From a virus (lineage: Duplodnaviria; Heunggongvirae; Uroviricota; Caudoviricetes): a stretch of 8,639 nucleotides of DNA. A program made the translations under genes and the position numbers. Each line of letters begins with the position of its first letter. The stretch's first letter is position 1. The DNA is taken from the IMG/VR virus record IMGVR_UViG_2534681604_000013; one strand, given 5' to 3'. The notes beneath the pieces were generated by a model. It saw nothing but the letters and a program-made list of their open reading frames with translations. It was not told where the DNA came from and searched no databases. Positions 105 to 8,639 of the stretch are shown piece after piece.

Positions 105-204
105 CGCCCGCTTTGCGGGGCGGTTTCAATGCAGTTGCACTGACACGCTCAGGCCGCGCCGGGAATGGCGCGGTCTGCAGAAAATGAGGCAGGAAAACGC
201 ATGC

Positions 205-238
205 AAAGCCATGCACCTTATCGATGCATGGCTTTTTT
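205..238. terminator. Intrinsic terminator-like hairpin downstream of psu
   Basis: Perfect 11-bp inverted repeat AAAGCCATGCA (205-215) / TGCATGGCTTT (225-235) with a 9-nt loop. On the plus strand it runs straight into a T-run (233-238); on the minus strand it is followed by GCGTTTTCC. Could terminate the late operon or a transcript entering from the left. Confidence 0.6.
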
Positions 239-389
239 CAGTAAAACGGGCGGATTTTCGGGGAATTTTACACAGACTGATGTGATGCCAGTTGCGCACT
301 TTTACGCGAAAAAATCATGTTCTGCGCAGGGGTGAATTTTTCACGGCTGTCATCCACCGAAGCCGCGTCAGGCCTGAATCCGATGGTCG

Positions 390-839
390 TTAAAATGTCA
401 CTATCCTGTGCGGAATAATTAATTTTTCCCCCTTCGCAAGCCAGGACAGAAGGGCTTCACGCAGGGCATCTGTGGCACGCTGTATGGCACAGTTTCGGGC
501 AATGGCCGTCAGCTCACTGTATCCCATCAGCTCCGGTGCCAGTGCCGCCGCCAGTGCTGTGCCGTGCTGCTGCATAAAATCATTCAGCCGGTCGCGGATG
601 CTGATGTGCTGAACGGCTTCATGCGAACGAATATAACGACCGGCGGCCTGATTCACCTGCCATTTTCTGACTTCGATAATATTGCGTAATTCGTCCAGGC
701 GACTGACGTTTCTGCCTTCCCCGGACAGAAGCCGCAGATATTCCTGTTCGGCCGCAGCCAGCTCATTTTTGCGTTGCAGCCATGCTGCTTTGTTATTCTG
801 ACAGGTGTCAAAGGCCTGCTGTAAGGCTGTGCTCTCCAT
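390..839 (-). CDS. psu: Psu (polarity suppression / capsid decoration protein), C-terminally truncated to 149 aa by a frameshift
   Basis: 149-aa ORF, last gene of the sid-delta-psu late operon. A -1 frame continues the reading to a stop at 268-270, giving 190 aa, the length I recall for P4 Psu. The frame change maps to the homopolymer T5C5 at 423-432. Confidence 0.85.
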   Translation of the reverse strand: MESTALQQAFDTCQNNKAAWLQRKNELAAAEQEYLRLLSGEGRNVSRLDELRNIIEVRKWQVNQAAGRYIRSHEAVQHISIRDRLNDFMQQHGTALAAALAPELMGYSELTAIARNCAIQRATDALREALLSWLAKGEKLIIPHRIVTF

Positions 840-912
840 CGTTATCTCTTTCTCATCATGCTGAAGAATAAAAATACGGTGTGCGGCGACGGCCGGGGTT
901 AACCGGCAGCCC

Positions 913-1413
913 TCATTCCAGACGCAGCGAATATGATTGTGTTTTTAACCGTACTGGCGGCAGTTCCTGTTTTTCATGCAGGCGTTCTGCCAGTTCGTCC
1001 GGCGTGACCGGGCGGACAATGAAGCGGTTGATGGTCTGAAGCGTTTTAAACACCAGACCACAGCCCGGATCCGTGCACACATAAAAACGCTCGGTGACTT
1101 CCTGAGACAGACGCCGCGATGTTCTTGACAGTGCAAGGCCTTTACATCTCCGACAACAATATCCGGTAACAAGCATTCTTTTCGGGCGTTTCATACTGCC
1201 GGAGGCTGACGTCAGTGAATCGCGGTATCTCTGTTTGCCTGAAATGTATTCCATTCCTGAATCTTTACAGTCAGAGAAAAAGCTTTCACTCGCTTCAAAT
1301 GTCGCAGAGCAATAAATATTCCGGCACTGTGCAATCATTATCTTGGTGCCATCGTCCATGAAATGTGCGCGACGGGTGTGAGCAACATGTCCACACGACG
1401 GGCAGTAAATCAT
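913..1413 (-). CDS. delta: Delta: late-gene transcriptional activator, tandem Ogr-like zinc-finger protein (166 aa)
   Basis: Two Ogr-like halves, each with paired Cys motifs: CPSCGH...CRNIYC in the first half and CCRRC...CTDPGC in the second. 166 aa matches P4 delta. Start ATG overlaps the sid stop as ATGA (1410-1413). Confidence 0.9.
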   Translation of the reverse strand: MIYCPSCGHVAHTRRAHFMDDGTKIMIAQCRNIYCSATFEASESFFSDCKDSGMEYISGKQRYRDSLTSASGSMKRPKRMLVTGYCCRRCKGLALSRTSRRLSQEVTERFYVCTDPGCGLVFKTLQTINRFIVRPVTPDELAERLHEKQELPPVRLKTQSYSLRLE

Positions 1414-2144
1414 GACAGCAGTCCTCTGGCCTTAAGCTCTGCACCCTGCTGGTCTATTTTGTCCTGCCACACCTTGCGCTGTGCCGGTGTGCCTGCCACC
1501 TCATAATCCATGTGCGGGAGTGTTGCCGCTGACAGTCCGGTCAGCCGGAGAACCGGCTCGCCGGTGAGGCTGATTTGCATCTGTTTAATTTTCTGTTCCA
1601 GCGATGATTTCACCTGCTGCATGACAGCCTTTTCCGGTGCGACGTAGCCCTGATGCCCGGTGGTGTTGGCGAGCGGATTTTCCTGTACCAGGATACTCAG
1701 ATGCATTGCCCGGACAAGCGCCTCACAGGTTTCATTCAGGGCGTGTTCCAGCTCATGCTCTGCATACAGACTCAGAAGGTGATGATGTGCCTTCCGGTAG
1801 GCGGTGGCCGTGCTGTCACACGCCCCTTTCAGGCGTTCGCGTTCAAAATTCAGCACCACGGCCAGATTGTCATATTCCTGTACCAGCTCCCGGCGTGCCA
1901 CGCGCTCAATGTGGCGCTGTTTCAGCTCGTCGCTCAGGACACCACCGGCTGCACGAAAGGCCGTGCGCCAGTCGTCAGCGTCGTTTCCGTCGGCCTGCGT
2001 CAGCGCATTTTTTTCCTGCTCTGCCCGTTCAATGGCCGTGACGGTCTCATCCATCAGGCGGGCATTCTCAAGGTGGGCGGCTCTGGCCTTTTCCAGTTGT
2101 GCCAGTGCGGGTTGCAGATATTCAGGGATGGTGTGGTCAGACAT
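1410..2144 (-). CDS. sid: Sid: external scaffold / capsid size-determination protein (244 aa from the internal Met)
   Basis: The six-frame ORF runs 1410..2210 (266 aa), but the Met at 2144 (MSDHTIPEY...) has a GAGGAG Shine-Dalgarno 7 nt upstream and gives 244 aa, the P4 Sid length as I recall it. Starting at 2210 would place the TGT-N12-ACA dyads inside the gene. Confidence 0.85.
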   Translation of the reverse strand: MSDHTIPEYLQPALAQLEKARAAHLENARLMDETVTAIERAEQEKNALTQADGNDADDWRTAFRAAGGVLSDELKQRHIERVARRELVQEYDNLAVVLNFERERLKGACDSTATAYRKAHHHLLSLYAEHELEHALNETCEALVRAMHLSILVQENPLANTTGHQGYVAPEKAVMQQVKSSLEQKIKQMQISLTGEPVLRLTGLSAATLPHMDYEVAGTPAQRKVWQDKIDQQGAELKARGLLS

Positions 2145-2696: not shown

Positions 2697-2963
2697 ATGC
2701 AAGCTGTTTTTTCTTCCCCGTCTCCCGCCCCTGTGACGCCACTGATGCCGCTGCCGGACATCACGCAGGAGCGTTTTTTACGTCTGCCGGAAGTGATGCA
2801 CCTGTGCGGCCTGTCACGCTCGACCATCTACGAACTCATCCGTAAGGGGGAATTTCCGCCGCAGGTGAGTCTTGGCGGTAAAAATGTGGCCTGGCTGCAC
2901 TCTGAAGTCACCGCATGGATGGCCGGGCGCATCGCCGGACGCAAACGGGGGTACGACGCATGA
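2697..2963 (+). CDS. vis: Vis / AlpA-family helix-turn-helix regulator-excisionase (88 aa)
   Basis: 88 aa, matching P4 orf88 (vis). Core [28 protein letters not shown] is a typical AlpA/Vis HTH segment. GAGG Shine-Dalgarno at 2685-2688. Confidence 0.85.
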
Positions 2964-3550
2964 TGATGCCTGTTCTGCAAAAACACCCTTTTTCTGGCTT
3001 GCCTTTTTCCGGCATTTGCGGATATAGTTTTTCCGCTGTCGCAAAATCGGCAGCCGGGCGTGAGAACCCGAGTATGTTATCGGCGACATATGACGCGCCA
3101 TGCGTCTTTTTTTGTGTCGCAATCAACGCCACAGAGCACCAGATTATGGTGTGGCGTGTGGTTTGCCGTGCAGGTATGATCCTGTTCGCAATCGCATGTT
3201 ATACCTCTGAGTCAATGGTAGCTCAGGCGGGGCAGCCTCCGGGCTGGCCGGTTTCCGATAACGCCGGTATTCTCACCCCCGTCTGGGCTATCGCCATCGA
3301 GCGTGAGAACTCCGGCGATAGCGTCATTTACGCTGTTATCGGAGGTTGCCTTATGGCTATGACCCTTACCCCCTCACACCCTGAATTTGTCTTTGTGTTT
3401 GCGGCTGTCCGTCGCGCAGACCGTCATCCCCGTATCTGCATGCTTCGCACCGTCGCCGGTGATGAACGCAGCGCCCGCCGTTCCCTTGTCCGTGACTATG
3501 TGCTCTCCCTTGCTGCCCGTCTGCCGGTGGTGGAGGTGTCCCGTGCGTAA
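2960..3550 (+). CDS. Hypothetical ORF (196 aa) spanning the predicted immunity region; may not be a real gene
   Basis: Open frame whose ATG overlaps the vis stop (ATGA at 2960-2963), with decent codon structure. But it starts upstream of the predicted PLE, overlaps the putative RNA-immunity elements, and the product is Cys/Trp-rich with no motif I recognise. Confidence 0.25.
2999..3028 (+). promoter_or_regulatory. Sigma70-like promoter TTGCCT-N18-TATAGT, candidate PLE (early/immunity promoter)
   Basis: -35 TTGCCT at 2999-3004 and -10 TATAGT at 3023-3028. It lies about 390 bp downstream of the predicted PLL start, matching the roughly 400-nt PLL-to-PLE spacing described for P4. Confidence 0.5.
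3050..3320 (+). ncRNA. Candidate RNA-immunity leader (P4 CI-RNA / seqA-seqB-seqC-like arrangement)
   Basis: GCGTGAGAAC occurs twice in direct orientation (3058-3067 and 3301-3310). Its partial complement TTCTCAC (3270-3276) lies between them, just downstream of the predicted PLE start. Boundaries are not determinable by eye. Confidence 0.3.
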
Positions 3551-7098: not shown

Positions 7099-7123
7099 GA
7101 CCGGCATCTGCCGGTCTTTTTTT
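7099..7123 (+). terminator. Rho-independent terminator after alpha
   Basis: Stem GACCGG (7099-7104) / CCGGTC (7111-7116) followed by T7 (7117-7123), 17 nt past the alpha stop. Confidence 0.8.
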
Positions 7124-7136
7124 ATCCCTGAATCCC

Positions 7137-7438
7137 CCGAAGGTGAACAATCCACTGTTCACCCTTCACCGTATGTTCACCCGTTATCACACTGAAATTA
7201 AAAGAGAAAAACGAAAGGTGAACAGTGTGAACAATCAAATCAAAAAAAACTTTTTTCTCCCTGTGTGATTTCAGTGCGGAGGATTAATCACCGGTATGAG
7301 TCACACCGGCAGAATGCCGGAGGTGAAGAATCGAATGTTCACCCTTCACCCACTATTCACCACCTATCATACTGAAATAAAAGGAGAAAAAAGAAAGGTG
7401 AACAGTGTGAACAGTTCTTTCGAAAAAAAATTTTTTTC
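7137..7438. repeat. crr (cis replication region): two ~122-bp direct repeats with a 180-bp period, each carrying TGTTCACC/GGTGAACA iterons and an A8-T6/7 tract
   Basis: Repeat 1 about 7137-7258 and repeat 2 about 7317-7438 align with roughly 85-90% identity. Iterons include GGTGAACA at 7142-7149 and 7217-7224 and TGTTCACC at 7155-7162 and 7173-7180. Matches the P4 crr description of two 120-bp repeats separated by about 60 bp. Confidence 0.85.
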
Positions 7439-8396: not shown

Positions 8397-8639
8397 ATGT
8401 TCGTGGAACTCGTTTATGACAAAAGGAATTTTGATGGTCTGCCTGGTGCAAAAGAGATCATTTTAGATGAACTGAGTAAGAGAGTGCACCGGATCTTCCC
8501 GGATGCAGATGTCCGGGTTAAACCGATGATGACACTGCCAGCGATTAACACGGATGCCAGCAAACATGAGAAAGAGCGGATAAGTGCCGTCGTTCAGGAA
8601 ATGTTCGAAGAAGCGGAATTCTGGCTGGTAAGTGAGTGA
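8397..8639 (+). CDS. DinI-family protein (79 aa), MsgA/DinI-like SOS-inducible regulator
   Basis: MFVELVYDKRN...FWLVSE has the DinI-family architecture and the characteristic acidic C-terminus ending W(F/L)VSE. Compare E. coli DinI MRIEVTIAK...DWFVSE. Complete ORF with its stop at the window end. Confidence 0.85.
   Translation: MFVELVYDKRNFDGLPGAKEIILDELSKRVHRIFPDADVRVKPMMTLPAINTDASKHEKERISAVVQEMFEEAEFWLVSE

Follow-up and report, generated by a model that had tools for sequence, protein, structure and literature searches.

A P4-like satellite beside ssrA in Escherichia fergusonii B253

The window, by which we mean the whole stretch of 8,639 nucleotides analysed here, carries a P4-like satellite prophage integrated beside ssrA in Escherichia fergusonii B253. 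Its reverse complement is an exact substring of scaffold GL870860.1 of the draft assembly GCA_000190495.1, and its gene order is that of P4: sid, delta, psu, a vis-like regulator, the C4/CI immunity RNA together with isrK, epsilon, orf151, orf106, the alpha primase (777 aa), and the crr repeats. All genes of the element and its flanks other than psu are of the usual length.

The late operon occupies the left-hand part of the window and is read from the minus strand. Its first gene, sid (1410..2144), is intact and encodes 244 aa, agreeing in length and position with P4 sid and with a 244-aa gene in the locus L003. It is followed by delta (913..1413, minus), an intact gene for an Ogr/Delta zinc finger protein which, at 166 aa, has the length of P4 delta and lies directly upstream of psu. 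Downstream of the usual psu stop there is a hairpin with a 13-bp stem (205..235, minus; -22.6 kcal/mol, z = -3.56). P4 shares both the sid-delta-psu operon and the hairpin behind it, and the P4 record X02534 lists a region of dyad symmetry at the corresponding place; the hairpin is probably the terminator of the operon. With psu at the end of the late operon and this strong hairpin behind it, a lesion within the gene is not expected to have polar effects further downstream.

Further along, isrK (3035-3112, plus strand; Rfam, 68.3 bits) and the C4 antisense RNA of the P4 CI immunity RNA family (3211-3298, plus; Rfam, 76.2 bits) both fall within a mechanically called ORF at 2915-3550; this is the ordinary P4 immunity region. 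Two crr-like direct repeats of 120 nt each (7137-7256 and 7317-7436) are 82% identical and start 180 nt apart, as in the P4 crr replication region. Similarity to other P4-like elements stops between ~7596 and 7805, so that the boundary of the element is to be placed in that stretch. A DinI-family gene at the right end of the window (8397-8639, plus; 80 aa; PF06183, 68.1 bits) lies outside the satellite.

Past the left end of the window there are two cargo genes, then the integrase and ssrA. In P4-like satellites, anti-phage systems are found in the interval between psu and the integrase (PMC11718236, Fig. 9). In L003 the products of this interval (10840-14516) are a Pua-like metallophosphoesterase of 537 aa and a HAD hydrolase of 279 aa, and the same pair is present in E. 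coli PK6.

The psu reading frame and its one-base frameshift

As deposited, psu (390..839, minus) encodes a 149-aa protein (GenBank EGC05241.1, labelled Escherichia fergusonii B253), the C-terminus of which reads ...LAKGEKLIIPHRIVTF* in the ORF list. It is composed of Psu residues 1-139 and ten out-of-frame residues: from K139 onward the frame continues as LIIPHRIVTF and ends in a stop at 390-392. The change of frame takes place at a G5A5 tract (423..432, minus; G5 at 432-428, A5 at 427-423; T5C5 on the plus strand), which alignments with P4 and PK6 show to be one A short of an intact G5A6. The 3' part of the gene (268..422, minus) is displaced into the -1 frame, where codons 140-190 (INYSAQ...SHQSV) run to the usual stop at 268-270 with no internal stops; the adjacent-frame translation of 268-426 on the minus strand is KINYSAQDSDILTTIGFRPDAASVDDSREKFTPAQNMIFSRKSAQLASHQSV*.

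Both parts correspond to Psu. Residues 1-139 are identical to the 190-aa P4 Psu represented in PDB 3RX6 and 8PEU, while the displaced tail of 51 residues agrees at all 51 positions with the intact PK6 protein, likewise of 190 aa, and at 49 of 51 with P4 Psu. The Psu profile PF07455 recognises the 149-aa protein with 211.7 bits against a curated cut-off of 27.4, matching profile positions 1-136 of 182; on the intact allele the match extends over positions 1-181 of 182, which argues that the similarity of the tail is not due to chance. The arithmetic of length is equally exact, in that the 572 nt of the region plus one base give 573 nt, or 190 codons and a stop. The gene thus scores as a member of the Psu family and takes the expected place as last gene in the sid-delta-psu late operon of a P4-like satellite. 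The full-length domain, including the C-terminal Rho-binding helices alpha6-alpha7, is absent from the deposited frame, and this is owed to a single base, since the missing part is intact in the -1 frame.

A sequence-only reading of this locus had proposed that psu is frameshifted in the T5C5/G5A5 tract, giving 149 instead of 190 aa, and that one base had been lost either by the gene or by the assembly. Translation in both frames and the alignments with P4 and PK6 bear this out: the one-base frameshift is present in the deposited sequence in every detail described, and the choice between gene and assembly was rightly framed. Whereas that reading left the lost base anywhere within the tract, comparison with the intact G5A6 allele narrows it to the A6 run, where one A is missing (plus-strand T, 423-427). 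P4 itself has GGTGA6 at this place, its codons being AAG GGT GAA AAA ATT; the window reads GGG GAA AAA TT, one base short in the A run at codons 138-140, so that the deposited frame ends with a product of 149 aa.

The closest relative that we found is psu of E. coli PK6 (WP_000446131.1), which is identical over all 701 nt of window positions 200-900 except for its G5A6. The PK6 element also has the same cargo, integrase and ssrA site as that in B253, and the remainder of the element is ~98% identical.

What would be lost with the displaced tail can be judged from published work. Psu is a seven-helix protein forming a knotted dimer, in which helices alpha1 and alpha2 make up a coiled coil that is wrapped, belt-like, by alpha5-alpha7 (PMC3821671). 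Helix alpha7 (residues 170-186) fits into the cleft between two Rho C-terminal domains, above the nucleotide pocket (PMC11718236), and Rho binding needs P157, R166 and F169 (mutants P157L/S, R166C/P and F169V) as well as region 170-190 (PMC3737525). The loss of some 51 C-terminal residues, the Rho-binding region among them, had also been anticipated in the sequence-only reading, and it agrees with the 51 displaced codons and with these three studies. If the deletion is real, the 149-aa product would be left without helices alpha6-alpha7 and without every known Rho-binding determinant, and as all of these lie past codon 139, it is predicted not to inhibit Rho. It is doubtful whether such a putative product could fold, dimerise or decorate capsids, given that it would lack the alpha5-alpha7 belt around the N-terminal coiled coil (as judged from the structure in PMC3821671).

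Distribution of the A5 allele and the origin of the missing base

A 66-nt probe across the tract found matches at 909 places in 801 complete E. coli genomes, and only one of the 801 (~0.1%) carries the A5 allele. This is strain SA31-1, which is 100% identical to the probe and in which PGAP annotates psu as a frameshifted pseudogene (A7A21_RS23115). It shares with the window the G5A5 allele and the 149-aa reading, but the gene belongs to a different element, located beside a tRNA-Leu gene, with other cargo and with eight substitutions in the 701-nt psu region, all of which point to an independent frameshift event. The exact 149-aa product occurs on six contigs in a collection of 15 billion proteins, compared with at least 1000 contigs for each of two intact 190-aa sequences. 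Psu relatives that naturally end near residue 149 would have accounted for the short frame in another way, but a Pfam profile that reaches position 182, an intact allele that differs by one base and the single occurrence among the probe-matching complete genomes argue against a natural short Psu.

An exact-protein look-up returned eight contigs. Counting SA31-1 as well, the allele is on record from seven strains, on at least five psu DNA haplotypes and at three integration sites, namely beside ssrA, beside a tRNA-Leu gene and at a third site that we take from its neighbour genes to be selC. In all carriers the displaced tail is open and differs from that of the window by substitutions only, A160T and H187R, the latter being the residue of intact P4. 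With open tails and no changes other than substitutions across these haplotypes and sites, the A5 alleles look like independent, young events. A single old frameshift allele spread by descent is unlikely, as there are at least five haplotypes on elements 1-3% apart at three integration sites. One of the carriers is itself a decayed element: at the third site (inferred selC) in SRR9696888 (L007, 7701-9430), an internal deletion leaves alpha with 450 aa and sid with 98.

The data behind the B253 assembly are prone to errors of just this kind. A separate assembly of run SRR031803 (L008) aligns to 8,024 nt of the window without a mismatch, and hence represents the same strain, but has six one-base deletions (window positions 2014, 2304, 2712, 3365, 7249, and 7251), all in homopolymers. 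Three of them would break or fuse genes, affecting sid, the vis-like gene and an Ash-family/derepression fusion. Of 21 runs of at least 6 nt, 5 are shortened in L008, as compared with none of the 38 that are 5 nt long and 1 of the 362 that are 3-4 nt long, indicating that the SRR031803 reads cannot be relied on where a run reaches 6 nt. The B253 reads would appear to be of a pyrosequencing type, judging from this error pattern and the early accession number; a literature search returned nothing useful on the platform. Similarly, the assembly of Shigella flexneri 1485-80 (L004) and that of run SRR061722 (L006) differ by no mismatches and by indels at four homopolymer sites only, and SRR024132 (L009) has an A7-to-A6 break in sid in common with L008. 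Further runs of at least 6 nt in the deposited assembly may be unreliable as well. The non-coding T7 run after alpha (7117-7123) lacks one base relative to E. coli PK6, which could be a second under-call or a true difference.

We consider an assembly artefact to be the probable cause of the missing A, and favour it over a real recent null mutation. B253 would then likely hold an intact 190-aa psu, and a homopolymer under-call would have persisted into the draft assembly from pyrosequencing-type reads. The observed indel, the source of the window, the errors typical of the read set and the scarcity of A5 lead us to infer that the psu tract itself is among the read errors. Beyond the scarcity of A5 in finished genomes, this explanation agrees with a psu region that is otherwise identical to the intact allele (701/701), with 51 displaced codons that have suffered no damage and with the normal length of the remaining genes of the element and flanks. 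Further to that, three of the seven A5-allele strains (B253, Shigella flexneri 1485-80, and SRR024132) come from error-prone data, and pyrosequencing-type data make up, by our estimate, a tiny share of sequenced Enterobacteriaceae. The rate at which a draft consensus retains homopolymer errors entered this judgement as a general estimate.

Some of the evidence speaks against an artefact. Both the deposited consensus and the SRR031803 assembly have A5, and the majority of B253 reads are therefore probably A5, but a systematic error would give equal agreement. A5 is also found in the clean-looking later assemblies L005, L007, and L010 and in the finished genome of SA31-1, which suggests that the deletion probably also arises naturally. 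Accordingly, a recent slipped-strand loss of one A from A6, turning psu into a pseudogene in B253, is a tenable if distinctly less probable explanation. In its favour are the two concordant assemblies of B253, the occurrence of A5 on at least five DNA haplotypes at three integration sites, apparently clean assemblies and one finished genome included, and the presence of +1 and -1 variants of both G5 and A6 in the collection of 15 billion proteins (12 contigs with A7, 6 with A5, 3 with G4, and 2 with G6). The Rho-binding residues 157, 166, 169 and 170-190 are all encoded past codon 139 (PMC3737525, PMC3821671, PMC11718236). Weighing against it, a prior of ~0.1% from finished genomes has to be set beside a read set that is unreliable at runs of at least 6 nt, and the displaced frame shows no secondary decay, nor is there damage to the rest of the element, so that a real mutation would have to be very young.

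The two explanations differ in what they mean for the element. With a real deletion, replication and packaging of the satellite would go on, while polarity suppression would be lost and, probably, the decoration of capsids by Psu as well. This would be one satellite copy lacking a Rho inhibitor, a natural psu-null allele, which fits with psu being dispensable. The gene is not essential for P4 growth. If, as we favour, the missing base is an artefact, the draft assembly carries homopolymer errors and the psu annotation should be changed from 149 to 190 aa. In either case the finding is an ordinary one: a familiar gene has an indel of one base in a homopolymer, and this allele is already annotated as a pseudogene in one finished genome.

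Variability of the tract

That the tract itself is functional, either as a programmed -1 ribosomal frameshift site or as a phase-variable switch of Psu anti-Rho activity, is very improbable. As judged from the sequence, the wild-type ...GEK-INY... would be regained if tRNA-Lys slipped by -1 on A-AAA, and length variants in both directions are present in databases. However, a slippery heptamer of the form X XXY YYZ was sought in the zero frame and none was found, the codons being AAG GGG GAA AAA TTA, and a search for a stimulatory structure in the 93 nt downstream was equally negative, their fold being like that of shuffled sequence (z = -0.16). Neither is the two-frame arrangement conserved: it occurs in the single genome among the 801 with probe matches, and the reading frame is uninterrupted in P4, in PK6 and in more than 99% of alleles from the probe-matching complete E. 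coli genomes. Lacking heptamer, downstream structure and conservation, the tract can be rejected as a site of programmed frameshifting.

The same holds for a mutational hotspot or phase variation. The 2 to 12 contigs that carry each of the four length variants stand against at least 1000 for each of the two intact sequences, and a T6 run at codon 176 of psu, taken as a control, gave comparable variant counts (12 contigs with T7, 3 with T5); the tract thus failed as a contingency locus, the A5 allele making up ~0.1% of finished genomes. Runs of 5-6 nt are, to our knowledge, far below the length of known contingency tracts. It is just as hard to credit a low-rate on/off switch at G5A6, by which psu-off satellites would be spared the cost of Rho inhibition during residence; slippage would bring about reversion, or else an occasional -1 ribosomal slip on A-AAA would rescue them. 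By these counts the tract appears to be no more variable than other 5-6-nt runs of the heavily sequenced psu gene, and its variants would represent background slippage together with sequencing error. For users of databases, this means that a 'Psu' entry of 140 or 149 aa is to be read as a slip in the tract and not as a natural short form.
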